Below are positions 34,096 through 56,739 of a stretch of 64,000 bases of DNA, piece by piece. Within the stretch, counting starts at the first letter, position 1. Each line of letters starts with the position of its first letter. The translations under genes were made by a program, and so were the position numbers. The notes under the pieces are model-generated. The model was given only the letters and a program-made list of their open reading frames with translations, had not been told where the DNA came from and ran no database searches. The stretch comes from an uncultured bacterium (lineage in GTDB: Bacteria > Latescibacterota > CAZTBA01): contig CAZTBA010000001.1 in the NCBI GenBank assembly GCA_964611725.1, forward strand, positions 1,117 to 65,116. The letters are read 5' to 3'.

Positions 34096-36663
34096 TTACT
34101 CGGACTTAGTCAGTTCCCCAACGATCTCCCTGAAGAGCTTCTGCTTCTCTTCTGAGCTTAGATTTCCCTGGATGTTTAGTTGCTCCTCTGGTGGCTTCCT
34201 GACCTTTTCCACCCCTGGAACATCCATCCTCCATTCTGCCTCTACTTCCTCAATTGGGGTGGCATATTTGGCTCTACAACGCTTAATTATCTCCTGGCTG
34301 AAATCAGGCATATCGAAGCCTTCCTCCTCCCATTCTGGAGGCAGGGCTGACATTGTAAAGGTATGTTCGTCTACCTTGACCAAAGTTTCATATGGTGGTA
34401 GCTGGGTGAAATGTTTGGCCTGGAACTTCTCTCCATACTGCCTGGACATGAGCGAAGCATACTCAGCTCCCAGGCGGAAGCTCACAATTGTGCCAACATT
34501 GCCAAAAATTGAGCTTCTAATTTCCGCTGGGATCTGGGCCATGTTCTGATGGGCCATGATGAGGCTGATGCCGTATTCTGCTCCCATCGAGAGGATGTCC
34601 GTGATCGCCGGGGTCAGGTACTCCTGCAGCTCGTCTAAGAAGATATAAAAGTCGCTGCGCTTCTCGACAGGGCGGTTCATTGCTGAGAGTTCCAGTTCTG
34701 TGACTAACATCCTACCCAGGATTGCCCTACGTTCCTGGCCGATGTCTGAAAGATCCACTATGAGGATGCGATTGTTAGTGACAATGTCCTCGAAATCTAA
34801 TTTGCACTCCTTTTGACAGAGCATCCTGCCTATAAGTTCATCCCCGACAAACTGATCCAACCTGTTTATAACTCCCTCTGCGGAGACATCATATCTTAAC
34901 CTCGGATCTATGCGCTCATCTATACTTCTCCAGAAGCGTATAAGGTGGCGGTTCTTCTCTGGATCGAGCTGGCTTAAGGTCTCCTTCCGGATTTCCTTAT
35001 CGTCCAAAAATCTTGTGATATCTCTCAATGTAGCTCCTTCGATTTCGAAGAAGACAAGCATAGCGTTTCTCAGAATCCTTATCATCCTGGCAGTCAAAGG
35101 ATCGCCTCTATAAAATGTGATTTTATCCACAAGCATTATAAAATCCTGGATGACATCACTCCTGGGCCGGTGTTTGCCAAGCTGGAAGATATTGAGAGCG
35201 AAAGGATAATCACGGTCATTCGGCCTGAAATATATCACATCATCTACCCTATGTTCTGGAACCAGCCTCAGGACTGTTCGTGCTAAACTTCCCTTCGGAT
35301 CAAAGGGTGCTATCCCCTTTCCTCTGTCCATCACATCCCGGATCGGGTGGGTTCCCAGCGTGCTCTTGCCCATTCTTGTAGCCCCGGCTATGAGCATATG
35401 CCTGTTAAGCCTAATGTCAGAGATCCGGATCGGTATTTCCTGATTCCTATACCTATTGACACCAATTAATACCCCTTCGGAAAGATCCGTCGGTGCTCCC
35501 ACCTGTGGGATCTTCACTCTTTTAAGCTTATCGCTTTCCACCTTTGCTGTGGGCAGGTGAACTAGACCAGTAAGTTCCGTGGGGTTTAGGAGTGCGCCAT
35601 ACCGGTAGCTCAACCTTCCTCGAATCAGTTCCCAGAGATGGCTCCCTTCCTCAACAGGGATAAATCTCTGGAACTCGGTGTTAAATAGCTCAAGGTATCT
35701 ATAAAGCCGATACATCGCCTCTGCAGAGCTTCCTGCTGTGCGAACCTGAATGGCAAAGAAAGGTTCCTGGGCTTTCTCAGTGGCTATTGCCCTAAGATCT
35801 ATCTCTGCTTCTCTCGGGAAGCCTGTTACCTCATCCATCACCGCCTGCTTGAGATTTGCTGTCCAGTCCCCTCTGCATTTTGTCACCAGTATCTGCAATA
35901 TGGCTACTTCCTGCTCTGTCAGCACCTCCATCACTCCTGCAAGATATACCAGGAGATCCTCTCCCTGAAGCGCATCACGGAGCGGGAAAAGATGGGAGTC
36001 AGCTAAGCTGTAAGACCAGATATAACGAGGGATTACATTCCCAAGCATATCCTCTCCCGATATCTCAAACTGGCTTTTGGGGTATTGGGTATACAAAAGC
36101 CCCATAAGGATGTTCAGGAAAATCTCCGGACAGGCAATCTGCAGGGTCAGTTCGTCATGATCGGCTATCACTTCGAATGAGGTAATGTAGTCGCTTGACA
36201 GCCCCACGAGAACGCCCAAAGTGTTCTGTGGCTGTACATCCTCCTCAAACATAATTGCCCTGATAAATCGCAACGGCATGGGATTATATGGCCTGGCCCT
36301 AAAGTGCACGGGAACAATCTCTCTCTTCTTCAAGAGTCTCGAAATTGGTGAAAGACGGATCGGTCCTGTGTAACCCAAAACGTATCTATCTGCATCATTA
36401 AGCTCAGTAGAGCGAAATGGCTCATAGGGAGGTTCTAAGTGTATGGGATAAGAAAAAGGTATTAGATTACCCTGGCCACGCCTTAGCTCTGAATAACGCT
36501 TGAGCTCCCGCAGCTCCTCCATTGAGGTAATAGACCCTGAATCCCTGCTCAAAAGGCTATCCAATTTTCGCTCATGCCGCTCCCACAGGGAGCCTGGTTC
36601 TTCTATCTCCACTCTTCTTCTGAGTGGAGGTTTTCCGCTTTTAAGGAGAGTTGCTTTAGACAT
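34096..36663 (-). CDS. TraD/VirD4-like type IV coupling protein (FtsK/HerA-superfamily ATPase) with a ~420-aa unassigned N-terminal region
   Basis: Walker A LIAGATRMGKST, then FDPKG; Walker B FYIFLDELQ; then ISLIMAHQNMAQI. Confidence 0.7.
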   Translation of the reverse strand: MSKATLLKSGKPPLRRRVEIEEPGSLWERHERKLDSLLSRDSGSITSMEELRELKRYSELRRGQGNLIPFSYPIHLEPPYEPFRSTELNDADRYVLGYTGPIRLSPISRLLKKREIVPVHFRARPYNPMPLRFIRAIMFEEDVQPQNTLGVLVGLSSDYITSFEVIADHDELTLQIACPEIFLNILMGLLYTQYPKSQFEISGEDMLGNVIPRYIWSYSLADSHLFPLRDALQGEDLLVYLAGVMEVLTEQEVAILQILVTKCRGDWTANLKQAVMDEVTGFPREAEIDLRAIATEKAQEPFFAIQVRTAGSSAEAMYRLYRYLELFNTEFQRFIPVEEGSHLWELIRGRLSYRYGALLNPTELTGLVHLPTAKVESDKLKRVKIPQVGAPTDLSEGVLIGVNRYRNQEIPIRISDIRLNRHMLIAGATRMGKSTLGTHPIRDVMDRGKGIAPFDPKGSLARTVLRLVPEHRVDDVIYFRPNDRDYPFALNIFQLGKHRPRSDVIQDFIMLVDKITFYRGDPLTARMIRILRNAMLVFFEIEGATLRDITRFLDDKEIRKETLSQLDPEKNRHLIRFWRSIDERIDPRLRYDVSAEGVINRLDQFVGDELIGRMLCQKECKLDFEDIVTNNRILIVDLSDIGQERRAILGRMLVTELELSAMNRPVEKRSDFYIFLDELQEYLTPAITDILSMGAEYGISLIMAHQNMAQIPAEIRSSIFGNVGTIVSFRLGAEYASLMSRQYGEKFQAKHFTQLPPYETLVKVDEHTFTMSALPPEWEEEGFDMPDFSQEIIKRCRAKYATPIEEVEAEWRMDVPGVEKVRKPPEEQLNIQGNLSSEEKQKLFREIVGELTKSE

Positions 36664-37021
36664 CTATGGTCACCTCGCATTGTGGACACGTGATTTCGTG
36701 TGTGTAGGTTTTGCAGCTTCGACATCGGGAGAGGATATGCCTGACAGTGTTTGAACCACACTGACAATGCCATAACCCATTCAGATCGATTTCCAGGCCA
36801 CAGTTGTAACACCTTTCCGTTGAAATAAACAGCCGCTGTATTGCCCTTCTATAGCCAGGATGTAAAAAAACCAGGAAATGGTTTCCAATGATGAGCAGAC
36901 CTATGGCATCGTTCGTGTCATCTCCCGATGAGCCTATTATTAGCACTACTATCATCAGAAATACGTTGGAAATGATGAAATACCCCACGGAGATCAGATG
37001 CCGTCTGTTCCGTAGCTTCAT
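36656..37021 (-). CDS. membrane protein with a C-terminal double zinc ribbon
   Basis: Two hydrophobic helices, then CYNCG...CQCG...CRSC...CPQC. Confidence 0.5.
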   Translation of the reverse strand: MKLRNRRHLISVGYFIISNVFLMIVVLIIGSSGDDTNDAIGLLIIGNHFLVFLHPGYRRAIQRLFISTERCYNCGLEIDLNGLWHCQCGSNTVRHILSRCRSCKTYTHEITCPQCEVTIDV

Positions 37022-37921
37022 TTACTCCACCTCCCAGCGTTTCCTTACCTTTCCAGCCACCTTGTCCTGTGGCCCTATCCATATGGGCTTACGTTCATCC
37101 CGGTTCATAATTGCAGCCACTGTAGTAAAGCGAAACAGGTTTTCACCCCCAATTCCTCTATCATCTTCTTTTGTAGAGGACACCAGTTTAAGCGTTTCTC
37201 CCATGCGTTTCTCATTTGCGTATATAACCATTACCCTGAAAAAAGGCTCCTCCAGATCAGGAAGATTGTATTGAGTCTGGAACTGATCCTGATAGTCCTG
37301 CTTAAAAGCCCCGGTGTTTTTATACCGCTTATATTGGTTCAATTTGCTTTTCACATCTTCTTTGGCATTGTTGACCTCGACCTCGATCAAAAACAGGCTG
37401 AAGTAACCCTTCTCATAGATAAGGAGTATAGCGCTATCCGATTTGATCCTTCCACCCCATAGCCTTGGTGTCGGTAACACATAGAAATGCTTCACCTGCG
37501 TTAACCCCTCGTATCTTTCTATGAAGTAGAACACTGCCTCGGCGGTTAATCTGTGATGCTCAAACAGAAGCTTTGTATTGCCTGGATTGGGAGGTCCTGG
37601 GATCCGGCCATGATCCACCATCGACAGATCCTCAGGTTCTTCACTTAACACCTTCATCAACACTTCTTGCACGCCCAGAGCTGTGGCGTAAAATAGCCGG
37701 TCTTTCTCCCTTATATAGCCCAGCTTAAGCATGGAAGCCCAGCGCCTGGACATCGAGACATTTGCGCTGTCCCCTTCTCCAAAGATATGACGCTGTATTT
37801 GCTGGCGTGTACAATATCCCGTCTGGAGCATCCTATAGATGATAAGCGCATCCCGGGGTGTCGGTGAAAATGTCCCTTTATCAGTATTAGTCATACTCTT
37901 GCCTTCTCCTTTCTCTTGCAT
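37022..37921 (-). CDS. Replic_Relax-like (replication-relaxation family) protein; start uncertain (37921 or 37894)
   Basis: N-terminal wHTH-like TPRDALIIYRMLQTGYCTRQQIQRHIF, then EHHRLTAE...IKSDSAILLI...FLIEVEVNN...KLNQYKRY. This layout is as I remember the family, and it sits next to a T4CP. Confidence 0.55.
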   Translation of the reverse strand: MQEKGEGKSMTNTDKGTFSPTPRDALIIYRMLQTGYCTRQQIQRHIFGEGDSANVSMSRRWASMLKLGYIREKDRLFYATALGVQEVLMKVLSEEPEDLSMVDHGRIPGPPNPGNTKLLFEHHRLTAEAVFYFIERYEGLTQVKHFYVLPTPRLWGGRIKSDSAILLIYEKGYFSLFLIEVEVNNAKEDVKSKLNQYKRYKNTGAFKQDYQDQFQTQYNLPDLEEPFFRVMVIYANEKRMGETLKLVSSTKEDDRGIGGENLFRFTTVAAIMNRDERKPIWIGPQDKVAGKVRKRWEVE

Positions 37922-38222
37922 CCAACAACTGTTTCACAGTGTAGATGGGCAGAGCCAAAAGCAAAACTACAAGGATATTCTTTGCTGTCATCTGGTTACT
38001 AAATATCAGGTTAATAGCTACTCCCATCACGAATAACGCATAGAAGAACCATATTCGGAACAACATTCCCCTATTCCGCATGGGCCTTCGCCAGAGGTTT
38101 AGAAGTGGATTGATTAGGCGATGCTTGACAAATCCCGGTATCAGTCCCCGGGCGATGTGGAATGCAATCACTAAGAAGGCAACCGCTATAATGAAGCTTA
38201 TGAGTCGATCTTCCATCAACAT
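37887..38222 (-). CDS. small integral membrane protein (3 predicted helices)
   Basis: Hydrophobic stretches FIIAVAFLVIAF, FFYALFVMGVAINLIF, ILVVLLLALPIY. Confidence 0.5.
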   Translation of the reverse strand: MLMEDRLISFIIAVAFLVIAFHIARGLIPGFVKHRLINPLLNLWRRPMRNRGMLFRIWFFYALFVMGVAINLIFSNQMTAKNILVVLLLALPIYTVKQLLDARERRRQEYD

Positions 38223-38295: not shown

Positions 38296-38970
38296 CTATA
38301 TGGGTCGCACGGCCTGGGCTTGGATGCCCTTACCTGTTGCATAGAGCGGTATAAAGCTTACCTGCATACCCGGCGTTAAAGACCCTGCCACTTGAGATCT
38401 ATGCATGAAGATCTCTGTGCCAGTCCCATCCTGTATGATAAACCCAAATCCTCTCACCGGGTTGTAGAACTTCACCCTACCGGTGCGACGCACACCCTGG
38501 TCGGCAACAAAGACCTCTCTGCTCCCTCTTCCTCCGGTCTTTCTGGCAAAGTGTCCGTCATCCCTGCTGATGCCTTGAGGACGGTGGTAAGTTGGCGCAT
38601 TTGACCAATTGATCCAGAGCTGATCGTGATAGAATCCTGATTTCCCATTTCGGGTTATAACGATGTTCATATCAAACGGTGGCTCTATGGGCACTATGGC
38701 AATGCCGTTCGATGTATCCAGGCTGAACCTCTGACCGTTGCCATTTGCAGAAAAGTTATAACTGTACTCAGCTTTGACGACCTGCTTTCCGTTTACCTCC
38801 TGGAAGAACTTGACGGATAAGCCTTTCAGGTCATCGAAACCCAGCATCATCGCAAAGTCGTGCTGGTAGTGATCCTCTGGATGAGGGAGATCCTTGCCAT
38901 AGGATCTGGCCAACTGGGTGATTTCTGATATGAGCTTCCGCGACATGATGTTTGCATCTTGAGGTTTCAT
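38296..38970 (-). CDS. fusion of an unassigned ~150-aa domain with a C-terminal cold-shock domain
   Basis: GRVKFYNPVRGFGFIIQDGTGTEIFMHRSQV...GMQVSF carries CSD RNP1/RNP2-like motifs. It starts 21 nt after the E1 gene. Confidence 0.7.
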   Translation of the reverse strand: MKPQDANIMSRKLISEITQLARSYGKDLPHPEDHYQHDFAMMLGFDDLKGLSVKFFQEVNGKQVVKAEYSYNFSANGNGQRFSLDTSNGIAIVPIEPPFDMNIVITRNGKSGFYHDQLWINWSNAPTYHRPQGISRDDGHFARKTGGRGSREVFVADQGVRRTGRVKFYNPVRGFGFIIQDGTGTEIFMHRSQVAGSLTPGMQVSFIPLYATGKGIQAQAVRPI

Positions 38971-38991: not shown

Positions 38992-40467
38992 TTACGATTT
39001 AATGCTCTCTGCTTCCACTTCCACCACTTTGCTTCCTGCTTCCATATCAGTGGCCTTAGGGATGGCTCTCGGATTTCCCCTGACGGCTTTGAGGTAATCC
39101 GGAACCAGTTCCAGATCGCCAAGCCCCAGGACACCTTCTGGACTGCAGATCGGGCAGGAAGGATCTGTAGACACTTCTATATGCATCACCTCCCCTTTGA
39201 GTTGATCGTATGCCACGTACCTGCGGATTTTCCTATACGGGTACACGACATTGTGGATCTCTGCCACAGCCAGTGAGGCCATGGTGGCATTGATATGATA
39301 GACCGCAGGCGAGGGCATATCGCGTATATAGCCCCGCTTGATGAGTAAACTTCTCTCCTCCTCACTGGATAGTTCCCAACTTGCCATCTGGGTATCGAAA
39401 ATGGACGCACACTGGAGACACCACTCCCCTACCGGTGGGATCACGCACTCTCCGCTTATGTCTTTGATATTTCCCTCACTGTCCACATCTATGTTTACCC
39501 CAACGTGAACTATTGGGATCAGATACTGCGCCGACAGCCGGTTAGAAACCAGGCGGCTTGCGTGTGTATCCGTGCACACGACAAGAAGGTCACATCCCTT
39601 CAGGGCATCTATGGATTCTCTGTCAAAGAGCGATTGGTCCAGTATCTCAGCTTCAGCCTCAGGCGCAGCCCTTCTGATATTTCTCGCAGCAACTATTACC
39701 TTTGGCGTGCCTCGTTTGGCATCCCAGTTCGTTGCTCCTAAAAGGCGATTGAGGTTTGTCCTCTCTACCCTGTCGTTGTCCACAAGGACCCACTTCCTTA
39801 CGCCCAGACGTGTCAATTCTTCGCATACCACACTTCCTGTTCCACCCAGACCGATAAGGCCGATGCGAAGCTCGCTCAAACGCTTCTGAAAAGCCTCTCC
39901 AAAGGCCATAACCTGCCTGGAAAAGACCTCATCAGACTTTTCTCTACCCGGTTCATTGCCATCCCTGATTCTCACCTCTTCATATGAGCCAAACCTTACA
40001 GCATCTGCCTTTTCTGCTACAGGACCGCCAGCATGTATTCTCCAGATCCTTGCATCTAATGCCTCTCTTGTCATTACCACAGAGCCGTATAAAGTCCCAG
40101 GTATTTTCCTGCCAAGATAGCTGGCCATTCCCCTTTCATAGCTATCATCAATGCCCGAGAATCTCACTACAGGGCTGTTGGACACATGCGTATGGAAGTC
40201 AATCTGTGAAAGCCCCTCCCGATGGGCCATTTTTAGTATATGTTGGTTGATTTCATCCCTTAGCTCCAACCGGCCAGCGCTTTGCTCAACAAATGCATCT
40301 TTGGGAAACAGGATAAAATGCCTGCCCAGAAGATGCACTTCACCTCCCACCTTGCTTATGCCGCAGAGTATGATAGCCATCTGTTCTTTCGCTCTATCAC
40401 TGAAGAGATGATCTTTCAATTTCTGAGCCATCTTTTCTGTCAATATGATCTTGTTCGGCATCGGCAT
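38992..40467 (-). CDS. JAB/JAMM metalloprotease fused to an E1-like (ThiF/MoeB-family) adenylating enzyme
   Basis: JAMM: EQMAIILCG...HTHVSNSPVVRFSGIDD (E, HxH, SxxD). E1: IGLIGLGGTGSVVCEELTRLGV...LVDNDRVERTNLNRL, plus CLQC and CPIC zinc-site pairs. Confidence 0.85.
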   Translation of the reverse strand: MPMPNKIILTEKMAQKLKDHLFSDRAKEQMAIILCGISKVGGEVHLLGRHFILFPKDAFVEQSAGRLELRDEINQHILKMAHREGLSQIDFHTHVSNSPVVRFSGIDDSYERGMASYLGRKIPGTLYGSVVMTREALDARIWRIHAGGPVAEKADAVRFGSYEEVRIRDGNEPGREKSDEVFSRQVMAFGEAFQKRLSELRIGLIGLGGTGSVVCEELTRLGVRKWVLVDNDRVERTNLNRLLGATNWDAKRGTPKVIVAARNIRRAAPEAEAEILDQSLFDRESIDALKGCDLLVVCTDTHASRLVSNRLSAQYLIPIVHVGVNIDVDSEGNIKDISGECVIPPVGEWCLQCASIFDTQMASWELSSEEERSLLIKRGYIRDMPSPAVYHINATMASLAVAEIHNVVYPYRKIRRYVAYDQLKGEVMHIEVSTDPSCPICSPEGVLGLGDLELVPDYLKAVRGNPRAIPKATDMEAGSKVVEVEAESIKS

Positions 40468-40473
40468 AGTCTC

Positions 40474-40944
40474 CTAATCATTCGTTAGAGTTTCCCTCAC
40501 CATGTTAAGAAAAGTCCACAGATTATCTGGTTGTCGGTAATCTGCTGAAGCCTTCCAGCCTCCCTGGCCAGAGGCAATACGCACACAGTACCAATACCAC
40601 CCCGCTTTTGTTAAATTTGGCGCTCCATGATAGCTTCTGCCTGTCAGATGGCTGTCAGAGCCTCCTCCGGTCAGCTGGAACTTCTTGTTAAGGTAAAAGC
40701 CTATGGGCGGTGTGTCTGGATAGCCCTCCGGGAAGACTATCATCAACTTGCACCATCTCTTCTGCCAGCGTTCAGGAAGGGCATATCTGGGGATCACAAG
40801 CCAGTCCCCATTCTCTTCGTCGTATAACACACCGCCGGCTTTTGCAAAGCGTGGTGCGATCATCAAGATCTCATTGTCAATCCGCTGCTTGCGTCGACCT
40901 GGCTGCACTTTACCAGAACCAAATAATGATTCCCAAATTGACAT
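40474..40944 (-). CDS. prokaryotic E2-like (UBC-fold) protein
   Basis: IVFPEGYPDTPPIGFYL...GWYWYCVRI...DNLWTFLNMV: a UBC-like YP(D)xPP flap and a candidate catalytic Cys. Lies between the Ubl and E1 genes. Confidence 0.7.
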   Translation of the reverse strand: MSIWESLFGSGKVQPGRRKQRIDNEILMIAPRFAKAGGVLYDEENGDWLVIPRYALPERWQKRWCKLMIVFPEGYPDTPPIGFYLNKKFQLTGGGSDSHLTGRSYHGAPNLTKAGWYWYCVRIASGQGGWKASADYRQPDNLWTFLNMVRETLTND

Positions 40945-41006
40945 TTACTTTCACCTCCTTTGAAGGGAGCAGGATAGCCTTCTTCGGCCATCCTACTCCC
41001 TAACCC

Positions 41007-41213
41007 TCAACCTTTGATGCGTTTTGGAGAGTCCACGAACATGTCTCCGTCTCTCACATGGACCTTGGAACCGGGTTTGAGGCTATAGTTACCCTCCTTT
41101 GTCTTATTGACCACAATCCGCCCGTCCTCGATCCCGCCAAATTCGCGGATCTCCTGCTCAGAGGTATTTGAAGGTATGCTGACCCTTCTACCATTAATGA
41201 TTGCTGTTGCCAT
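41007..41213 (-). CDS. 68-aa ubiquitin-like (beta-grasp) protein ending in a free C-terminal Gly
   Basis: MATAIINGRRVSIP...EIREFGG...VHVRDGDMFVDSPKRIKG-stop. The pattern resembles ThiS/MoaD/multiubiquitin-type modules. Context is E2 and E1. Confidence 0.65.
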   Translation of the reverse strand: MATAIINGRRVSIPSNTSEQEIREFGGIEDGRIVVNKTKEGNYSLKPGSKVHVRDGDMFVDSPKRIKG

Positions 41214-41214
41214 T

Positions 41215-41877
41215 TTACACCTCCTCTACTGTTTCAACAGTTTCTGCTACCGCTTCCTCAATCACCGATTCATCCTCATCCGGCATCTGGCTGAGGTCAA
41301 TGAACGAGTTCACTGCCTCCATAAGGTCCTGCGAGATCGCCGCCGGCGTCGCCGCAACTTCCACCCTGATCCCCCTCATCCTCAACCGCTCTGCAAGGGG
41401 GACGTAATCGCCATCACCGCTTGCGATTATGGCAATATCTGGCTTGACCTTGTCTGTGTAATCAGCCGCATCCAGGGCTAAAGCGACATCGAAGTTACAC
41501 TTTAGCTTCCCGTTTTCAACAAACTTGGCAAGTTTTGACCGGACGATGAAGCCTCCGCTCCTCAGTGACCGTGCTTTGGCTTCGCCTTCCTCCACCTGCC
41601 TCGGATCAATTCCCATGTAGACGAACGCCTCCAGTAGATGCCTACCCTCGCTCAGGTAGTCCCTGAATCTGAATGGATCCAGACGACGCCCCAGGGCTCG
41701 TAGTCCTGCCTCTATATTGTATAGTTCGATAAAGGCTACTGCTTTTTCCAACTTTGATTCGGTAAACATGCGCATATCATTTCTCCTTTCTTCTGGCAAT
41801 ACTCCTCTTTGGCTGGTAAAAGACCCATCTCCTACCATCCGGAACTCATTAACACTGGCCATCTTAGAATTTCCCAT
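41215..41877 (-). CDS. NYN/LabA-like (PIN-related) predicted RNase
   Basis: VAFIELYN...NFDVALALDAADY...IAIIASGDGDYVPLAERLRMRGIRVEV carry the conserved Asp clusters of NYN/LabA. Start is ATG 41877 behind AGGAGGTG, with 41775 as the alternative. The stop is 1 nt before the Ubl ATG. Confidence 0.75.
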   Translation of the reverse strand: MGNSKMASVNEFRMVGDGSFTSQRGVLPEERRNDMRMFTESKLEKAVAFIELYNIEAGLRALGRRLDPFRFRDYLSEGRHLLEAFVYMGIDPRQVEEGEAKARSLRSGGFIVRSKLAKFVENGKLKCNFDVALALDAADYTDKVKPDIAIIASGDGDYVPLAERLRMRGIRVEVAATPAAISQDLMEAVNSFIDLSQMPDEDESVIEEAVAETVETVEEV

Positions 41878-42040
41878 TAGCTTCTCACCTCCTTTCAAAT
41901 GATTTTCCTTTTACCCTATATAACGACAGATTGGAATTTTTCTTGCAGTCACCTTAGAGCATATTTTTGCATCAATCTGGTTGGTGTCTGATCTCGTTAT
42001 TCTCTACTTTGTATATGTAACGATACTTTGCTTTTTTTCT

Positions 42041-42080
42041 TGCAGAAAGAAAAAGGCTTCCGAAAAACTTCGGAAGCCTT
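42041..42080 (-). terminator. strong Rho-independent terminator ending the CHAT/sigma/anti-sigma operon
   Basis: Minus strand: AAGGCTTCCGAA-gttt-TTCGGAAGCCTT, then TTTTTCTTTCT, 29 nt after the stop at 42109. Confidence 0.75.
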
Positions 42081-42108: not shown

Positions 42109-44307
42109 TTACATTAACTCCTCAATTATTGTTCTAAGAAATTCTCTCTGGAAAAGAAGGTCCCGGAAATCTTCAATTTTCTGCCTTTCAAGTGGTTTTG
42201 AATGCACCGAGCCATTTCGATACTTTTGTACTATCATATGCAATTTGTTTTGGAAACCTTTTTCAAAGAAAAGCTCAGACTTTCTATGAACAAAAACAAA
42301 CAACTTCCCATAGACTTCCCATTTTTCCCTTGATCTCTCACCTGAGGCTTGAGCAAAAGTATTGGCAAGCTCGTGAAGTGTAAGAGACTTCTCACCGGCT
42401 AAGACAAACTGACCTTTGGAGTTCTGGAGAATTTTTAGTGTGACTCCTGACTTTCTTTGTTCTTCGAAGTCTTTAATTAGTATACTCTCAATCTTATTTC
42501 TATCTCCCCTTCGACAACTGAGCCACCTGTCCACTGCCCAAACAATCTTATCGTTTAGAAAATGTTCCACAGCTTTGCTATACATTGCAGCAGCAGCAGC
42601 ATAGTCCTTAGCCTTAACGTTTTTTAGAATCTTATATAAGAATTCCCCAAAAACCAGAGTTCTACCGCTTTCTCCCATAAAGTTTAGATTATCTTCTCCA
42701 CCAACTCCTAGACTTACTATCTCCTGAGTCTTTTGATAATCTTCCTGATAGACTCTGCAAAGATCTCCAGCAATTCCCTTAACCTGCCTACTAAATCCGT
42801 CGCTTTTCTGCTGAAGATCCTCTTCAGAAGCTTTATCTGCATCCCTAACAATGAAAAGGTTCTTAAGTTCACTGATCTCAGTGAGCTTAGCGTCTATATC
42901 TTCTACCTTCTTCTCAATCCTCCCTACCCTCTTCACCAGAGAGACCAGATCTCTGGCAATCTTAGGAAGAATGAACTTTTCTAAAATCTCCAGCCTCTTC
43001 TTTCGCTCTTCTTCAAGCTCCCTTGCCAGTTTTTTTGTCTTTGCCTTTACCGCCACTTCATATAAATCTCTTAAGGGATGGAGGGTGGGGTTTAGTGTTT
43101 TAGCGGTTTCAAAGCTACTTATAACCCTTTCAAGATCTTTGGGAGGAAGCTCGCTAAGATCACGCCCGTATTCTAAGACCATTCCTACACCTGCATAGCC
43201 AACATACCAACCGCTGCGCTCTCTTGTAAGCCGCTCAAAGACAGGTAACGCCTGATCATATTGCCCATTCTTGATATGTCCAATGCCTCTCACTACATCA
43301 GCTAACATCGGGTTGTAGGACTCAATTCTGCTCTCAATATCCTCTGAGAAGTCCTTAATAATGGCCTTAGGAGCCGCTTCCGGCTGGTAACCCCTGATCT
43401 GGAGGCCAGCTTTATATTGCTCAGGATCAACATCACGTAAAGTCTTCACCACAGCCAGAAGCTGCAATGCTTCTGAATCTTCAGGTTCAACTTTGAGCAC
43501 AGAGGCAAGTAAATCCTCGGCAATCACATAGTTTCCATGATCGATGGTCTTCCTCACGTCGATAAGGCGTTCCTCAACAGGAAGGTCCCTTATCGTGAGA
43601 GCAACCTCACCAATTCTTTCACCTTCTTTTTCAATCATGAATGTATAGGAACCAAATTTCATTTCACGGAAAGTTACTCGACCATGCCGGTCGGTTCGTC
43701 CCGCGTTTTTCTTTACCTGTCCTGTCTCCTGGAACCAAACATCAACCCCTCGGACCGGCTGGTCAGTCTGGAAGTCTTTTATATAGATTCTGACTTCTAA
43801 TTCCTCCAGGGTCTTTTTACTTACCCTTACCTGAACAAGATAATCACCAAGCCTCTTTTTGACTCCTTCAAGGCCACCCGATGGAACCGGTGCTCCACGC
43901 ACCATCTCAAGCTCTTTTAATCCGCCTCCCAAGACAACTTCACCGGTAGTCTCGATTACCTTTAAAAGGCCGTCTACAATACCAATAACTATTTGAAAAG
44001 AGCTTTCTTTCTCTCTGTTGAGTGCCTGCCTAATCAATCCCATAATCTTCACGTTCTGAGCCGGTTCAACCGAAATCTCAGCTATATGACTTAGAGCTTC
44101 TTGGAGGACTTCCACCTCTCCCCTACAGTATTCACATGTTTCTATATGTGCTTCTACAAGATCCCGGTGCTTCCCCTCAAGGAAACCATCGACATATTGC
44201 CCAATCTCCTCTTCAGTAAGGCAAAATATCCCTTTCTCTGAGGACGTTTTCCTCTCAGCATATTCTCTAAGGAGCTTATCGATATCGACGTTGTCCAAGT
44301 ATTTCAC
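42109..44307 (-). CDS. cytoplasmic anti-sigma-like protein: N-terminal zf-HC2, beta-sandwich, TPR/coiled coil, C-terminal HEPN-like domain; start uncertain (44364/44307/44298)
   Basis: HIETCEYCRGE is the H-x3-C-x2-C anti-sigma zinc finger, found right after the sigma gene. VRIYIKDFQTDQPVRGVDVWF..GRTDRHGRVTF is CarboxypepD_reg-like. C-terminal QKYRNGSVHSKP has the RNxxxH motif. No TM segment seen. Confidence 0.6.
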   Translation of the reverse strand: MKYLDNVDIDKLLREYAERKTSSEKGIFCLTEEEIGQYVDGFLEGKHRDLVEAHIETCEYCRGEVEVLQEALSHIAEISVEPAQNVKIMGLIRQALNREKESSFQIVIGIVDGLLKVIETTGEVVLGGGLKELEMVRGAPVPSGGLEGVKKRLGDYLVQVRVSKKTLEELEVRIYIKDFQTDQPVRGVDVWFQETGQVKKNAGRTDRHGRVTFREMKFGSYTFMIEKEGERIGEVALTIRDLPVEERLIDVRKTIDHGNYVIAEDLLASVLKVEPEDSEALQLLAVVKTLRDVDPEQYKAGLQIRGYQPEAAPKAIIKDFSEDIESRIESYNPMLADVVRGIGHIKNGQYDQALPVFERLTRERSGWYVGYAGVGMVLEYGRDLSELPPKDLERVISSFETAKTLNPTLHPLRDLYEVAVKAKTKKLARELEEERKKRLEILEKFILPKIARDLVSLVKRVGRIEKKVEDIDAKLTEISELKNLFIVRDADKASEEDLQQKSDGFSRQVKGIAGDLCRVYQEDYQKTQEIVSLGVGGEDNLNFMGESGRTLVFGEFLYKILKNVKAKDYAAAAAMYSKAVEHFLNDKIVWAVDRWLSCRRGDRNKIESILIKDFEEQRKSGVTLKILQNSKGQFVLAGEKSLTLHELANTFAQASGERSREKWEVYGKLFVFVHRKSELFFEKGFQNKLHMIVQKYRNGSVHSKPLERQKIEDFRDLLFQREFLRTIIEELM

Positions 44308-45073
44308 CCCCTCTACCCATGATCTTCTTAAGCTGCTCTCTGGCCCGTGTAAGGTGAGAACCAACAGTTCCTACCGGTATGTTAAGCCCTAAGGCGATCT
44401 CCTTATAGCTCTTCTTCCCTTCGTAGTGGAGTTCCAATATCCTTCGCTGAAGCGGCTCTAATTTACTCATTGCTTTATGCAGGAGGTCAAATAGTCTTTC
44501 CTCTTTGCCAACATCCTCCTCAATATCGATCAAGGTCTGTTTTTCCTTCGATTCTTGCTCGTAGTCATTCATAACTCGCAATCGCCGTGCAATTTTCTTC
44601 TTTTCGTCCAGAGCAAACCACCTTGCCCTTTGGTAAAGCCAGGTCGTAAACTTGATTGTCCAGGCATATTCTCTAAGTCCTTTAAAATTATGGCTAATTA
44701 ACTTTTCAAGATAGAATTCTCCTACAATATCTTCAATAAATTCTTGACTCTGATCCTGATATATTTTCCAAACCGCTGACAAAATAAGTTTTTGGAAATG
44801 ACTTACAAATTCCTCCCAGGCTTTCTCATCTCTATTAAGGCAGCGATCGAGGATGTCCTTGATTTGAACTGCTTCCCAAAGTTCATCCTTTGCCTTTTTG
44901 TCGCCATTCCCACATCGCTCAATCGACCTTTCAACATATAAATATCCCTGATACTTCTGTAACAGAGCTTCTTTGGCCTGACAATCACCACTGAAAGTCT
45001 GATCAATAAGCTCAAAATCTCTCTCTAAAGGCAGATTCAAATTTACCCTCTCAGAAATCCAAAAGTCTGACAA
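44276..45073 (-). CDS. sigma-70 family (ECF-like) RNA polymerase sigma factor with a ~75-aa N-terminal extension; non-ATG (TTG) start in the track
   Basis: Region 2: EKAWEEFVSHFQKLILSAVWKIY...FTTWLYQRARW. Region 4: LEPLQRRILELHYEGKKSYKEIALGLNIPVGTVGSHLTRAREQLKK. Confidence 0.8.
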   Translation of the reverse strand: MSDFWISERVNLNLPLERDFELIDQTFSGDCQAKEALLQKYQGYLYVERSIERCGNGDKKAKDELWEAVQIKDILDRCLNRDEKAWEEFVSHFQKLILSAVWKIYQDQSQEFIEDIVGEFYLEKLISHNFKGLREYAWTIKFTTWLYQRARWFALDEKKKIARRLRVMNDYEQESKEKQTLIDIEEDVGKEERLFDLLHKAMSKLEPLQRRILELHYEGKKSYKEIALGLNIPVGTVGSHLTRAREQLKKIMGRGGEILGQRRYR

Positions 45074-45183
45074 AATAGAATACTATTCTACAATTCTCTC
45101 TTACTTTTATCGTTTCCCCTTTTCCAAAGACAGATCACCTATTCTAAAAGCAAAAGCGTTGATAGTCGAGTTTATTTGAGACC

Positions 45184-46905
45184 TTAATTCCCCTCACGGA
45201 ACCACTTTGTATCAGCCCACTCTCTTCTTAGCTGCTCAAAAACCTGCCTATACCTTGCTTTTATACCTGAGTCTGAGGTTAAATTCGTAAGACGAAAGAT
45301 ATATTGGGCCACAGAGTCTGCTAAAACATGTCCTGCCAATTCTCTTGTCTGGTCGATAGTAAAAGAAGAGGAAAGTTGCTTTTCAAGGGCTTTTCCTATG
45401 TGCTCTTTATCAAAAAGCTGGAGTATAAAGGCAGCACGTAAGGGCGGCCTTGTATATCCCACACAAAGTGCATCAGCAAGATAATGTATAGCCCAGGTGT
45501 TGCCGCTATTTTTCTCTGCCCAATATCGCATCTCATAGCCGTTGTGAATTGATACAAGCAGGAGAAAAGTCAAGGACTGCTCATCAATCTCTATCCCACC
45601 CTCCATAACACGGCGTGCCTGATCCAACAGATTTCCCTTATCAATCCCAGGATATTTACAACCTCTCTTTACCCAGTTATCTTTTGCTGCTATAATCTTT
45701 TTCAATGTGGACAATTGTCCAGCAGCCCTTTTCCTTCTTCGAGTAAGCGGCTTCAGGGTAAACGCAGGATCACCATAAAGCATATAAGGAGCCCAGAAGA
45801 GCTGGTCAAAACCGTAGGAATCCTGAATAGATTTCCTTGCCATTCTCAGAGAACTGCCCATGCTATTGCCTGAAAAAAGGCTCTTATAAAATTCCACAGC
45901 AAAATGTGCACTTGGTTTATCGAGTATTTTGCAGAAGGTTCCGATGTAGTGCTTCACACCTGACATTGCGAAAGCGCTGGCCAATCCAAATGACTTGGCG
46001 TCATATATAAACTGTTCCTCCCAGTTAGAATGGGTCCTCTTATAATCCTTCATAGTACCACTATCGCAGGAATTTGAGAACACAAAAAGAGGTGCTGGAG
46101 AAATATTACTGATCTCAAAACAAGGGCATATCTCCTCTACCTCTCCACCTTTCATTGACAGGACCCAACCGTTTCTTTCAGGTTCCTCTGGATCAAAGAC
46201 AGAATGGCCTATGAAGTGCACGATATGGTAATTATCACCAACCTCACAGATAAGATCAGACAAATTACGCTTGCCGCTTAAGGTTTTTACTTCAATTTGC
46301 CATTCCCCTTCCGCTGCCGCTTCTTCAAGCTCCTGTTTGATACTCTCAGCTTCGTTTCTTGCTTTACCAAGACCACCTGTGGGATCAGCAATAATGAGCA
46401 TCCTCAATTTCTGCCGGGATACCTTCTTTTCGGTTACCTTGCTCTTGACAGGTGTACCAATATATCGACCCATATTGAATTTGAGACAGAGAAACTCTTC
46501 TCCGTCAAACAGAAGTTCCCAAGGGATGTTAAGGAGATTACCAGACTCTGAACTAATCCAAAGTGAAAGATCTGTGTTTTTGCCCTTTCCAAGAAGTTCT
46601 TTCAGATGGATCGGCAAGAAATGGTTAAACATAGCTCTACCAACAGTCTTCATCTCCCCTAAAACTTCGCCTGTCTCCTGCATTAGTCCGTCCGAGGGTA
46701 AACCTCTTAAAGTTTCCTGGAGATTAAAGCTACCCATTGTTTCCGTTGCTTTCTCACAAAGTTGCCTTATAAGATCTGATCTAACCGGACAATCTGTGTC
46801 AAGAAAGGTTGTTGATGATCCCTTCTGCATTACGACAAAGTTAAGATTATCCACATCTCTTCGGGTGACAAGGATCTCCAATGACTCACGTTGCTTCTTA
46901 GACAT
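45184..46905 (-). CDS. CHAT-domain (caspase-fold) protease with unassigned N- and C-terminal domains
   Basis: LRMLIIADP...YHIVHFIGHS (catalytic His context)...LFVFSNSCDSG (catalytic Cys context)...YIGTF..WAPYMLYGDP. Confidence 0.8.
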   Translation of the reverse strand: MSKKQRESLEILVTRRDVDNLNFVVMQKGSSTTFLDTDCPVRSDLIRQLCEKATETMGSFNLQETLRGLPSDGLMQETGEVLGEMKTVGRAMFNHFLPIHLKELLGKGKNTDLSLWISSESGNLLNIPWELLFDGEEFLCLKFNMGRYIGTPVKSKVTEKKVSRQKLRMLIIADPTGGLGKARNEAESIKQELEEAAAEGEWQIEVKTLSGKRNLSDLICEVGDNYHIVHFIGHSVFDPEEPERNGWVLSMKGGEVEEICPCFEISNISPAPLFVFSNSCDSGTMKDYKRTHSNWEEQFIYDAKSFGLASAFAMSGVKHYIGTFCKILDKPSAHFAVEFYKSLFSGNSMGSSLRMARKSIQDSYGFDQLFWAPYMLYGDPAFTLKPLTRRRKRAAGQLSTLKKIIAAKDNWVKRGCKYPGIDKGNLLDQARRVMEGGIEIDEQSLTFLLLVSIHNGYEMRYWAEKNSGNTWAIHYLADALCVGYTRPPLRAAFILQLFDKEHIGKALEKQLSSSFTIDQTRELAGHVLADSVAQYIFRLTNLTSDSGIKARYRQVFEQLRREWADTKWFREGN

Positions 46906-48795: not shown

Positions 48796-49893
48796 TCATT
48801 TGTTTTCTTCAAATGATTTTTGTATCAGAAGCTTGGCAGTTTGAAACCTCTCAAGGCTGTCAATTGCAAGCTCAACGTCCCCTACTCCCCAGTGCCCAAT
48901 TTTCGAAACATCACGGGCATATTCAGGTGGACTCTCCAAATCCAAATAATTCAACTTCAACCAAACTCGAAGTCCACTTTTTTGAATATGAACACAACAA
49001 AAAATGTCTTTACCATAGCTATATCTGATATACATAGCAAGATACTTTTTTTGAACACCAGTCGGGCCAAGCTCTCTACAAAACCTGTCAACTGTTCGAA
49101 ATAATTCCACAACTTCTTGTGGTCTCCCTTTTATATGATGTTCCTCACCGTATTCTTTGCCTCTTGCTCTACCGGGAGGTACAGACTCTACACCAGTTTC
49201 AGCACTAGGAGGAATCTCTATTTCCGATGTTTGTGCCCATAGCCTCTTTAGGGCTTTTTTCACTTGCATCGGTTTAATGCTATCATTTCCAAGAGTTGAG
49301 CGTATAAGCCTGATTAGAGTGTCCGGAGGTTCCATAAAGAGTTTGTCCAAAGCCTTTCTCACTTTTCCTGTAGTGAAAACCTGCTCCCCAATCTCGTCAA
49401 GGAGACCTTTAGCCATCGCATCACGTGAGAAACGCGCAAATTGCCCTGCAACCTGCTGGACTGACATACCCTCAGTCTCCTTTGGGTCAAGAGAAACTTC
49501 AAAAAGCAACTTATCAGGGGCCTCTGCTTTCTCAGTGCTGTGATAGACTCTGTATGTAACACCATTAGTGAGAATGCACCATTCAATACCTGCATTGGCG
49601 GCATAGCCTACTACCTGTGTGATCGATTTAACATCTGTTAGTGGATCATTTAATGGTTTGGCTTCTATGAATAGAACTGACTTACGGTTTATTTTAGGTG
49701 CATAGTCAACCGATTTTCCGTCTATCGTCGGATACTCAAGCTCAACTTCATCTGGATCCGTCAAGTCCCATCCAAGAGCTTCCAATAGTGGATCTATGAA
49801 TATTGTTCGTGTTGGATACTCCTTTAGTTCAGCTTTTCGATGCCTATCCAACTTTGCTCGAAGGATTTCAATGCATGAGATTATAGCGTCCAT
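48796..49893 (-). CDS. HsdR_N-like PD-(D/E)XK domain protein with a DUF5655-like C-terminus
   Basis: TRTIFIDPLLEALGW...VDYAPK...VLFIEAKPL is the type I restriction R N-terminal-type nuclease motif (D...EAK). Confidence 0.65.
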   Translation of the reverse strand: MDAIISCIEILRAKLDRHRKAELKEYPTRTIFIDPLLEALGWDLTDPDEVELEYPTIDGKSVDYAPKINRKSVLFIEAKPLNDPLTDVKSITQVVGYAANAGIEWCILTNGVTYRVYHSTEKAEAPDKLLFEVSLDPKETEGMSVQQVAGQFARFSRDAMAKGLLDEIGEQVFTTGKVRKALDKLFMEPPDTLIRLIRSTLGNDSIKPMQVKKALKRLWAQTSEIEIPPSAETGVESVPPGRARGKEYGEEHHIKGRPQEVVELFRTVDRFCRELGPTGVQKKYLAMYIRYSYGKDIFCCVHIQKSGLRVWLKLNYLDLESPPEYARDVSKIGHWGVGDVELAIDSLERFQTAKLLIQKSFEENK

Positions 49894-49929
49894 TTTATTA
49901 ACTCACTTCCCCCCTCTATCAGAGAGCAT

Positions 49930-52900: not shown

Positions 52901-53046
52901 ACAAGCTCTTCGAAGAAGTAGCTCTGCCCATTAGCAGAAGGTCCTTCTTCCGCGAGCCGCAGCATTGACTTTAACTCGTCAAAACTTTGTGCCCCGAGCA
53001 AATGGTGAAGATACCGAGCCAAGACTGTGTATTCTTCGAGCCTCAT
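49930..53046 (-). CDS. Type III restriction Res-like SF2 helicase/nuclease subunit
   Basis: Motif I MATGSGKT, motif II LILVDEGHKG, a later QLFGRGVR arginine finger, and a C-terminal YPDFILWI...FIDPHG nuclease-like motif. 1-nt stop/start overlap with the methylase gene. Confidence 0.8.
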   Translation of the reverse strand: MRLEEYTVLARYLHHLLGAQSFDELKSMLRLAEEGPSANGQSYFFEELVKQTGLLLSEDELRVYDKRVMEYETRLVRIRSEFKAFRYFQYLALLYTEIFLDRLTRNSRELLADLNVFLCELREDDSELRDFPEFEMDNLRRLAFFMATGSGKTLLLHVNVWQVLYYLEHSRHPESIVPRTDGWRTFDNILLITPNEGLSRQHITEFEASGIEACVFIENPTASSLFGPVVKVIEIHKLSEEPSREGVSVVLDDLGENNLILVDEGHKGTGSEAQVWKSRQRYLSRGGFLLEYSATFAQAIGAASRRRDQKELSQEYGKAILFDYSYAHFYGDGYGKKFNVLNLSRGTAGRAHELLLGGLLTYYQQLLLYEQKSEEYRPYNIEKPLWVMLGSSVNAMYIRDSQRRSDVAEVVAFLRRVLEEQNWATEVIGRILSGNSGFTDTETELDLFAPYISHLYGKDPEMVYGQIIDKVFHGGGALEVWEIKNVEGELGLRASAGDSQNSPYFAVINIGDVSEFRKYLDRHLDIEVQEDRFVGSQFEQVNRADSLTNILIGAKKFIEGWSSWRVSSMGLLNMGRGEGPQIMQLFGRGVRLKGKDMSLKRTEALLTHNGHPEGIEHLETLYIFGWNADYIDSFQNMLGREDIGKEFTINVDLRTPWPKDDLPVPKKEGSFDTGALTWTLESEGITVTIDLVPHLIGLRDSVTGGVATRGRAGTAVEIDFSRTQYLDLLDLDLLYADLVRYKQTRGYGNVYVRRGALPEILQKHCRLRIPEEDEKVPDHLQHAAGQLLKTYLDRFVRYKEREAESQHIELGWLEADERVLKQYKVRVKSGEFLEQIEALLGRGLDLFDAPEPLPRFYIDWHLFNPILAQGGKKWQKDVSVRPPALVPAEIQLVRDLKAFWQSNSSQIPFSGYTAYLLRNFPKSGIELFHRSGFYPDFILWIKDESTGRIHVRFIDPHGLHHGGLVGNEDKFEALRKLSELSNAPAFQTKRITLDGFVLTRTSLDDIPDRGDRGWMELETQYLLMRQEGNYARRLLTHP

Positions 53047-56201: not shown

Positions 56202-56454
56202 TGTTCCACTAACCCCCTTTTAACGACGCTCAGTAAAATTCAAGCAGTAAACTTCCGTTATACGCAAGCATGAACAAATGCATGTCCTGACGCAACACTG
56301 TTTAGATCTGATTATCTTCCTCAGCAACCTGTCCTCCACACCCTTTGCCAACCTCAATTTCTTTGGTGTCCTGAATTCTCAGTTCCCCTGGAATAAAAGC
56401 TCAACTCTTCACCACAGCAAGAAGATAAGCAGAAGACCCTTCGTTTCAAAGAAA

Positions 56455-56497
56455 AACAAAAAACAGCCCTGAGAATTTTCAAAAAGGCTGTTTTTGT
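56455..56497 (-). terminator. terminator-like hairpin between the integrase operon and the R-M genes
   Basis: A-run, ACAGCC-N17-GGCTGT, T-run. Confidence 0.45.
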
Positions 56498-56523
56498 TAT
56501 TCGAAGATTCTCTATGATGCTCC

Positions 56524-56721
56524 TTATCTTATATTCTTCCAACCTCCCCTAATTTCCACAACTCCGGGAACCTTGTTTTTCAGGTCGTTCCTCTTCAGCC
56601 CACTTAATCTCTCCTGATTCTCCGTATCCCTAATCCATTTCGTGTAGGCTAAAACCTCTCCTCTCCCCTCTTGGGAGAGTTTCCTAAATTCTCTTAGAAT
56701 TTTGTATTCAATCGTGGTCAT
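56524..56721 (-). CDS. hypothetical 65-aa protein downstream of the integrase
   Basis: ORF only. Confidence 0.4.
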   Translation of the reverse strand: MTTIEYKILREFRKLSQEGRGEVLAYTKWIRDTENQERLSGLKRNDLKNKVPGVVEIRGGWKNIR

Positions 56722-56739
56722 AGTTTTTGTCTGTCCACT

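Follow-up and report, generated by a model that had tools for sequence, protein, structure and literature searches.

A sister lineage of Type I Bub with a cysteine-type E2 and no BubE, probably a module of an integrative mobilisable element

Operons of type 6e, in which a JAB domain is fused N-terminally to an E1 domain, were described by Iyer et al. (2006; PMC1779556) and were renamed Bub by Ye et al. (2024; Ye, Gong, Chambers & Corbett, bioRxiv 10.1101/2024.11.21.623953). Type I Bub (6E.1) is composed of BubAB, a fusion of a ubiquitin-like protein (Ubl) with an E2, of the JAB-E1 protein BubCD, and of BubE, a DUF6527 serine protease whose gene is found in all Bub operons. BubAB is cut by BubC after a conserved Gly, and the cascade runs on oxyesters formed at Tyr370 of the E1, which is experimentally essential in BubCD, and at Ser333 of the E2, which is partnered by His335 and Asp299 (10.1101/2024.11.21.623953). 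Structures are available for Type I Bub (PDB 9ea4, 9ea8, 9eae and 9eav), single-domain Ubls are common in Bub, and these cascades were reported in 2024 to be the sole ubiquitination-like ones that run without any catalytic cysteine. Here we describe a related locus from an uncultured Latescibacterota bacterium, found in a stretch of 64,000 nucleotides (nt) hereafter called the window (GenBank assembly GCA_964611725.1, contig CAZTBA010000001.1, positions 1,117 to 65,116). The locus encodes a Ubl, an E2 and a JAB::E1 fusion, and represents a lineage sister to Type I Bub that has a Cys-type E2 and lacks BubE. We regard it as likely that the locus is a Ubl-conjugation operon of this previously uncharacterised clade, carried as a module of an integrative mobilisable element.

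The three open reading frames (ORFs) for the Ubl, the E2 and the JAB::E1 protein are present on the minus strand where a first-pass annotation of the window, made from the sequence alone, had placed them. They follow an NYN nuclease gene in the order NYN, Ubl, E2 and JAB::E1, four genes with minimal spacing; the ATG of the Ubl gene lies 1 nt past the TAA stop of the NYN gene, and strong Shine-Dalgarno sequences precede the starts of the Ubl (GGAGGTG) and the E2 (AGGAGGTG). These are not chance ORFs, as homologues number more than 100 for the E2 (50-72% identity) and more than 75 for the JAB-E1 protein (40-63%). The annotation had proposed a conjugation cassette of Ubl, E2 and JAB/E1, an identity supported by the Pfam matches and by the matches to BubCD, BubB and BubA detailed below.

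The E2 (40474..40944, minus strand; 156 amino acids, aa) has a UBC fold of the Prok-E2_E family, as indicated by Pfam (PF14462), by an AlphaFold2 (AF2) model and by alignments. The Pfam check suggested with the annotation gave 28.9 bits, just over the cutoff of 25. For the AF2 model, with a predicted local distance difference test (pLDDT) of 81, the top PDB match was BubB (9eae_C, probability 1.0), after which only eukaryotic E2 enzymes were matched. The protein contains a YPDTPP flap and the motif WYWYCVRI, which includes Cys120 (codon TGT, 40585-40587). Two cysteines are present, C65 and C120, and only C120 is invariant among 30 homologues (50-72% identity), in which the invariant residues also include H99, W116, W118 and Y119. 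The annotation had seen an E2-like protein with a single well-placed Cys; the placement was right, since the invariant C120 lies at the catalytic position, and the word single was not, given C65. A profile-profile alignment with canonical Bub E2s (hhalign, probability 94.7%) placed C120 at the catalytic Ser, R122 at the His and I81 at the Asp. The hmmalign register agreed, with WFSWH, WFSFH and WYSIH in Bub set against WYCVR, WFCIH and WYCVH in the Cys-type sequences, so that a common motif [WY][FY][SC]xH can be written for these E2s, with W-Y-C in the window and W-F-S-x-H in Bub. Cys120 is thus the predicted catalytic residue of the E2.

An exhaustive E2 profile search recovered 444 clusters (50% identity) at E < 1e-3, and the best 150 of the 444 cluster representatives were aligned with the window E2, giving 151 sequences. 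At the catalytic column of this alignment, 137 sequences show Cys, of which 52 also carry His at +2, and 3 show Ser. The Cys-type E2 is carried by at least 137 clusters at 50% identity.

The JAB::E1 protein (38992..40467, minus strand; 491 aa) is a BubCD-like fusion of a JAB/JAMM peptidase with an E1, as determined by phmmer against the PDB, by Pfam and by invariant columns. In the phmmer search it matched Citrobacter BubCD (9ea4, 9ea5, 9eav) with an E-value of 3e-43 over aa 5-414, which spans both the peptidase and the E1 domains, and the next matches were ThiF, MoeB and UBA5 at ~1e-9. The N-terminal 165 aa can be aligned to the solved BubCD peptidase domain; the Pfam Prok-JAB model gave no direct match to the window protein and is recorded for many of its close homologues. 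The annotation had described a 491-aa protein with a complete JAMM site, a ThiF-type Rossmann fold and two CxxC pairs, all of which were located. The JAB domain (~aa 5-165) carries the JAMM residues E28, H92-x-H94, S104 and D107, and the E1 domain (~aa 180-445; Pfam ThiF, 1e-37) carries GLGGTGS and DNDRVERTNLNR, with R184, G206xG208, D230, R241, K256 and D300. The zinc ligands are C350xxC353 and C438xxC441, and the crossover loop contains Y380 (codon TAT, 39328-39330).

Across 35 homologues, the JAMM residues H92, H94, S104 and D107, the adenylation residues R184, Q185, G206, G208, D230, D232, N238, R241, K256 and D300, the four zinc ligands C350, C353, C438 and C441, and Y380 were invariant; E28 was invariant in 22 close members. 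All the experimentally validated BubCD residues are conserved (BubCD/window: E28/E28, H91,H93/H92,H94, D104/D107, R227/R241 and Y370/Y380), and the only Cys residues in the crossover-loop stretch are the CxxC zinc ligands. Identity of the E1 is 40-63% within the close family and ~30% to canonical Bub-type E1s. The close-family E1s also share an invariant G-x-x-G-L-G-D-L motif (LGLGDLEPLPDY) after the second CxxC, followed by a variable acidic tail, a region that corresponds in the window to aa 442-491 (38992-39144). This motif is not found in Citrobacter BubCD and may serve to dock the E2 or another partner.

The Ubl (41007..41213, minus strand; 68 aa) is a single beta-grasp domain, assigned from its ORF, from AF2 and Foldseek, and from the conservation of R[IV]KG. 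Scans of profile libraries gave no sequence family match. The AF2 model, built from an input of 4 sequences, reached a pLDDT of 90 with a bb(b)abbbb topology, and the top Foldseek matches were BubA multi-ubiquitin structures, namely 9d59 (query template-modelling score, TMq, 0.83), 9d5a (0.77) and 9ea8_B (0.79/0.72), followed by ThiS, MoaD and ubiquitin; the 68-aa protein therefore has the expected beta-grasp fold. The C-terminus reads ...SPKRIKG, with the Gly68 codon GGT (41010-41012) directly followed by TGA, so that the reactive Gly is already exposed, as the annotation had stated. A word-indexed search with the 68-aa sequence returned only 3 relatives, and Ubl homologues were taken from the ORFs of the collected loci. 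In this way a Ubl homologue was found directly 5' of the E2 in 19 of 19 non-redundant cases, window included, with the family consensus AIINGRRV...GN...DGD.F.DAP.R[IV]KG. The terminal R[IV]KG is kept in all 19, which answers the question of whether the C-terminal Gly is conserved. Eleven of these Ubls stop at the Gly, five have tails of 1-9 aa and three are in-frame Ubl-E2 fusions; among the 151 aligned E2 sequences, about a fifth (32) are Ubl-E2 fusions with a KG| junction.

Compared with Type I Bub, the window cassette has the same JAB N-terminal to a single-adenylation-domain, homodimer-type E1, an E1 with no catalytic or crossover-loop Cys and with an invariant crossover-loop Tyr, a Prok-E2_E E2 that lacks the C-terminal UBC helices, a BubA-like Ubl with a conserved C-terminal Gly, the gene order Ubl-E2-JAB/E1 and, in relatives of the window cassette, Ubl-E2 fusions cleaved after the Gly. 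It differs in having Cys120, Arg122 and Ile81 where Bub has Ser333, His335 and Asp299, in lacking both the BubE/DUF6527 serine protease and an APH/TCAD9 kinase-like gene, and in encoding the Ubl and the E2 as separate genes, with one Ubl domain against the three of Bub. Its E1, at ~30% identity, retains a Cys4 zinc site that was lost in Citrobacter BubCD, and the window-type cassette is fixed beside genes for a type IV coupling protein (T4CP) and a Replic_Relax protein, with no CapW/BrxR or CapH/CapP seen. The absence of BubE was examined with a BubE hidden Markov model (HMM) run on six-frame translations, which was positive in all five canonical loci (L037-L040 and L044) and gave no match in either the window or the close family (~30 loci); no PF20137 (BubE) match was present among the window genes either. 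Three of the canonical loci, L037, L039 and L044, are BubE operons with separate Ubl and E2 genes, in which the Ubl ends in FG-stop or FGTK-stop. The same three loci have an extra gene, APH/TCAD9 kinase-like, that separates the E1 gene from the BubE gene, and their layout departs from the BubAB fusion described as universal in Type I Bub.

These comparisons change the grounds on which the cassette can be called new. The annotation had compared it with Bil and with CBASS (cyclic-oligonucleotide-based anti-phage signalling system); it was correct in recognising a conjugation cassette, and the proper comparator is Bub. It had also pointed to the JAB-E1 fusion order, to a single-domain, pre-processed Ubl and to the flanking NYN and CSD (cold-shock domain) genes as differences from known systems. 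The fusion order is the one that defines type 6e and BubCD of Type I Bub, Ubls of one domain are common among Bub systems, separate Ubls ending at or nearly at the Gly occur in the canonical loci L037, L039 and L044, and of the two flanking genes, CSD has no counterpart anywhere and NYN is found at only 12 related loci (10 distinct). Those grounds are wrong, and the better-founded difference is the Cys E2 together with the missing BubE, by which the cassette is not identical to a characterised type. A literature search with incomplete coverage of subscription journals returned no paper describing either a Cys-type variant of 6E/Bub or a cassette linked to NYN.

Other known systems are more distant. 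Type II Bub (6E.2: BubA, BubBD and BubE) shares the E1, E2 and Ubl families and the crossover-loop Tyr, and differs in its own E2-E1 fusion, in the absence of a JAB domain, in a Ser plus Lys/His E2 and in the presence of BubE. The Bil systems (Type I, 6D; Type II, 6C; BilABCD) also combine a Ubl, a cysteine E2, a JAB and an E1 with no E3, and have a conserved Gly that possibly bears a removable tail. However, Bil uses a large E1 of IAD-AAD-CYS architecture that includes a catalytic Cys domain, and encodes its JAB in a gene of its own, whereas the window E1 is a single ~265-aa adenylation domain joined to the JAB and has no CYS insertion. Bil shows no linkage to genes for T4CP or relaxase, and a search of the PDB chains with the window E2-family profile did not match BilB. 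CBASS Type II Cap2/Cap3 (6B) and 6A-MBL likewise include an E1 adenylation domain, an E2 and a JAB and are found on mobile elements; Cap2 differs in being an E2-E1 fusion that conjugates a CD-NTase without a Ubl, and Cap3 is a separate JAB. Cap2 and PADLOC E1-E2 models matched only the Rossmann core of the window E1 (aa 192-326), and no CD-NTase was found among the genes neighbouring the cassette in the window. The PRTRC (ParB-related, ThiF-related cassette) systems of plasmids and integrative conjugative elements also contain E1-, E2- and JAB-like genes as a fixed module of conjugative elements; they draw on different protein families (Prok-E2_D-like, with the JAB separate), and to our knowledge no Ubl gene has been described in them.

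A working order of events for the cassette can be proposed. The 68-aa Ubl is synthesised mature, ending at Gly68, as its sequence shows. The E1 domain would then adenylate Gly68 with ATP, as suggested by the conserved adenylation residues and by homology with the solved BubCD, and the invariant Tyr380 would accept the Ubl as an oxyester, by analogy with Y370 of BubCD, a step for which the precedent is one experimental system. From there the Ubl would move to the E2, where the invariant Cys120 would hold it as a thioester, at the alignment position where Bub uses serine; taken by itself, this E2-thioester step seems to us fairly probable. The E2 would move the Ubl onto target lysines without an E3. 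The JAMM site would cut after R[IV]KG, trimming tails or splitting Ubl-E2 fusions in relatives, and would most likely reverse conjugation in the window, because no Ubl precursor and no BubE or second protease is found there, which leaves the JAB as the sole candidate for reversal. The annotation had assigned the JAB domain a role as deconjugase or editor, which is plausible at this locus. In the family, however, the Ubls of 8 of the 19 relatives are tailed or fused to the E2, and together with the 32 fusions among the 151 aligned E2s this makes JAB processing a family trait.

At its 5' side, the cassette operon is bounded by a strong intrinsic terminator (42053..42080, minus strand; 12-bp stem and T-run) that closes the upstream anti-sigma gene. 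In a terminator scan of the window, no comparable terminator was found between NYN and the end of the ATPase gene at 34096; for these two reasons, the NYN, Ubl, E2 and JAB/E1 genes and the next five genes look like a single transcription unit, and the cassette is probably co-transcribed with the genes for a T4CP-like ATPase and a Replic_Relax protein. The ATPase (34096..36663, minus strand; 855 aa; Pfam TraG-D_C and TrwB_AAD_bind) belongs to the TraD/TraG/TrwB group of the FtsK-HerA superfamily and is the last gene of the co-directional block. It matches NCBIfam VirD4-like CD1115 and TraD, phrog_5156, a phage family of unknown function (1.6e-46), and PADLOC mad8 (5.6e-16). It is unusually long, with an N-terminal extension of ~400 aa. 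The Replic_Relax gene encodes a distant 299-aa member of the family (37022..37921, minus strand), with no Pfam match; an HMM built from 14 Replic_Relax proteins of the related loci detected it with E 2.6e-7 and 20.9 bits, and its counterparts in L002 and L003 are annotated as Pfam PF13814. Its putative role in the element is that of a relaxase or a replication-relaxation protein.

Related loci were gathered by exact-protein look-ups and by genome and metagenome scans, giving 36 loci. Homologues of the T4CP-like ATPase lie 3' of the cassette in at least 16 of the related loci, and every related locus with downstream sequence has the cassette directly 5' of the T4CP-like ATPase and Replic_Relax genes, mostly then followed by an integrase. 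The order [NYN]-Ubl-E2-JAB/E1-(0-3 variable genes)-T4CP-like ATPase-Replic_Relax-...-tyrosine integrase was found in ~20 loci from several phyla. The genomic loci are metagenome-assembled genomes (MAGs) of Syntrophorhabdaceae, Binatia and Acidobacteria. The genome scan yielded 6 loci, every one a MAG, tblastn against plasmids retrieved only the canonical Bub type (119 records, all <37% identity), and no match to the cassette E1 was found in a phage genome collection; on this basis the close family is known from uncultured bacteria alone. In the window, the island extends from a short integrase gene (56740-57336; 198 aa) to the ATPase gene ending at 34096, and contains in order restriction-modification-like genes, a CHAT protease gene, a sigma/anti-sigma pair and the cassette operon ending with the ATPase. 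Its flanking genes are TrkH/TrkA at one end and desulfoferrodoxin and aldo-keto reductase at the opposite end. Within the overall picture given above, the cassette is probably a fixed module of an integrative mobilisable element, and its role is tied to the element by its co-directional and probably co-transcribed arrangement with the ATPase and Replic_Relax genes. More distant Cys-type E2s, in L042 and L043, also stand beside a Gly-terminal Ubl and a JAB-E1 with Tyr in different neighbourhoods; the triad of Ubl, Cys-E2 and JAB/E1(Tyr) is therefore general, and the mobile-element linkage is particular to the sub-clade of the window.

Two other accounts of the chemistry were considered. The locus could be a canonical Type I Bub with oxyesters as its sole intermediates, with Cys120 structural and another Ser, such as S104 in 'RSYH', as the E2 nucleophile, which would fit the BubCD-like E1 with its catalytic Tyr, the shared Pfam family of the E2s and the S104-Y-H106 triplet, itself of the S-x-H form. 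This candidate was rejected as a Bub-like SxH, since S104 is mostly Ala in homologues and the SxH of Bub aligns with W-Y-C120-V-R; BubE is missing at the window and the related loci, BubB Asp299 falls on Ile81, and we consider this account very unlikely. A sulfur-carrier system of the ThiS/MoaD-ThiF/MoeB type, which would form a thiocarboxylate for cofactor or tRNA thiolation, shares the E1 Rossmann fold, the MoeB-type Cys4 zinc site, a beta-grasp partner and adenylation of a C-terminal Gly; the window E1 matches ThiF/MoeB models and the Ubl model resembles ThiS/MoaD. Yet such pairs have a GG terminus, biosynthetic contexts and no E2 or JAB, whereas the window Ubl ends in KG, the E2 and JAB are conserved partners, and the vicinity is that of a mobile element with no thiamine or molybdopterin genes. 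All NCBIfam ThiF/MoeB scores are far under their cutoffs, the best equivalog reaching 69.9 bits against 275, and a sulfur-carrier function is highly improbable. Several points weigh against our own reading, that of a Cys-E2 sister clade of Type I Bub forming a module of an integrative mobilisable element. In the window E2, Arg122 and Ile81 take the place of the His (+2) and Asp partners of the Bub Ser; the E2 loop 91-110, which holds the invariant His99, is modelled at pLDDT 65-67, giving an active-site geometry of low confidence; and both the thioester and the oxyester steps are predictions from alignment. As for the context, the loci were collected through the E1, so that the association of the cassette with the element backbone was sampled from the E1 side only, no att (attachment site) direct repeats were found for the island, and NYN is not present 5' of the Ubl in the more distant members L007, L009, L013, L025 and L008, for which reason it was rejected as an obligatory effector.

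As to its role, the cassette could be defence or addiction cargo, or could control transfer or establishment of the element. In a defence against phages or other mobile genetic elements, the Ubl would be placed onto invader proteins as in Bil, with the NYN RNase as an associated effector. Among the relatives of the machinery, Bil and CBASS act in defence and Bub is defence-associated; the island also encodes restriction-modification-like proteins (a methylase, a ResIII helicase and HSDR_N) along with a CHAT protease, and NYN matches the PADLOC NYN models and is translationally coupled to the Ubl gene. However, phage protection has been shown for no Bub operon to date, the close family showed neither a CapW/BrxR nor a CapH/CapP regulator, and the cassette is fixed by the transfer genes instead of lying in variable cargo, with NYN missing in distant members; a defence role is possible, if short of probable. 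Alternatively, the cassette would serve the life cycle of the element, by modifying the coupling ATPase, the relaxase or host and recipient proteins during excision, transfer or establishment, or by acting as an addiction module. Wherever downstream sequence exists, the cassette comes directly before the T4CP-like ATPase and Replic_Relax genes and runs in the same direction, with no terminator between them in the window, and the linkage spans Syntrophorhabdaceae, Binatia and Acidobacteria MAGs at just 44-60% E1 identity; Iyer et al. (2006; PMC1779556) had noted such operons on conjugative elements and proposed an addiction-like role. This is co-occurrence only, in loci picked via the E1, which shows the dependence in just one direction, and the distant Cys-type cassette of L043 has other neighbours (FRG and RRM domains), so that we hold an element role to be somewhat unlikely as a specific explanation. 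The invariant place 5' of the coupling ATPase and relaxase nevertheless favours an element function over defence more than is usual for defence genes.

The first gene of the operon encodes the NYN (LabA-like, PIN-fold) nuclease (41215..41898, minus strand; Pfam PF01936, E 4e-20). Its longest ORF starts at TTG 41898 (227 aa), and an ATG at 41877 lies 7 nt past a perfect Shine-Dalgarno sequence (AAAGGAGGTGA), which is probably the true start, giving a protein of 220 aa. The NYN homologues at the same position of the 12 related loci mentioned above retain the [DE]xxN, C[DN]xD and GDGD motifs. In L002 (3624-4593), L003 (3109-4503) and L011 (713-1700), S-adenosylmethionine (AdoMet) decarboxylase-like and GNAT acetyltransferase genes are found 5' of NYN, together with a Dam-like gene in L003; the AdoMet-decarboxylase-like/GNAT set is not present in the window. 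The 150-nt leader between the terminator and NYN contains two copies of a 32-nt direct repeat (41917-41948 and 42014-42045), 78% identical and 97 nt apart, which could be a candidate operator/promoter region with sites for a regulator of the cassette operon. In a sigma-70 promoter scan, the match count was not above that of shuffled sequence.

Between the cassette and the ATPase, the window has further genes on the minus strand. A 224-aa protein with a C-terminal CSD (38296..38970; Pfam CSD, 1e-9) gave PDB matches restricted to the CSD, and its N-terminal ~160 aa gave only a sub-threshold match to bacHORMA_1 (E 1e-3, 19.5 bits, cutoff 35.6). It was rejected as a part of the system, because it occupies the variable slot and no homologue was found at any related locus. 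The same slot is filled by a window-specific ORF for a predicted 111-aa membrane protein (37887..38222), with no significant family match and no homologue at the related loci. A 121-aa zinc-ribbon/membrane protein (36656..37021), with weak zinc-ribbon matches, has homologues adjoining the ATPase in L023, L013, L009, L014 and L015.

Three genes lie directly 5' of the cassette (42109-46905). Their products are the 573-aa CHAT protease, a 265-aa sigma factor and a zf-HC2 anti-sigma/TPR protein of 751 aa. A comparable set (sigma70, zf-HC2 anti-sigma and a TPR/Lon_C protease) stands beside the cassette in L002 (1-3420), and it may be a recurrent regulatory or defence module. Further upstream (48796-57336) are genes for an HSDR_N/DUF5655 protein (365 aa), a ResIII helicase (1038 aa), an N6_N4 DNA methylase (1051 aa), a Laminin_G-like protein and the short tyrosine integrase by TrkH/TrkA, which is probably the far end of the same island; no tRNA gene was found at the island ends.

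Some architectures outside the close family were also recorded. In L043 (1018-6858), a Cys-type Prok-E2_E domain forms the C-terminus of a 1134-aa protein whose N-terminus is weakly RRM-like, and this protein lies beside a JAB-E1 (Tyr, CxxC), a 102-aa Ubl ending in TTKG and an FRG-domain protein. The architecture is a different one within the Cys-type clade, for which there are four cluster representatives of ~1130 aa. L041 (5134-8484) contains a JAB-E1 relative at 30% identity with the Tyr conserved and with no E2 or BubE nearby, next to a 158-aa upstream protein, a DUF2971 protein and transposases.

The Cys-type clade is not small, with its 137 or more clusters, and it has probably been missed by published Bub surveys because these were anchored on DUF6527/BubE, which the clade lacks. 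A stronger proposal would be that it is a Cys-type Bub lineage with a mixed cascade, E1 tyrosyl oxyester followed by E2 cysteinyl thioester, intermediate between thioester ubiquitination and the all-oxyester Bub, and that in the sub-clade of the window the cassette is a core gene set of the element, which tags proteins so as to control horizontal transfer or establishment and is not ordinary anti-phage cargo; in this full form we regard it as unlikely. Since the JAB of the window locus has no precursor to process, its predicted deconjugating activity is separable there from processing, and the fixed linkage to a coupling ATPase and a relaxase offers a concrete setting in which to find the targets of Bub-like conjugation. 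By pairing a Bub E1, with its Tyr kept, with a Cys E2 in the same [WY][FY][SC] motif, the clade presents a natural Ser/Cys swap that speaks to the question of how the Cys-free chemistry of Bub originated.

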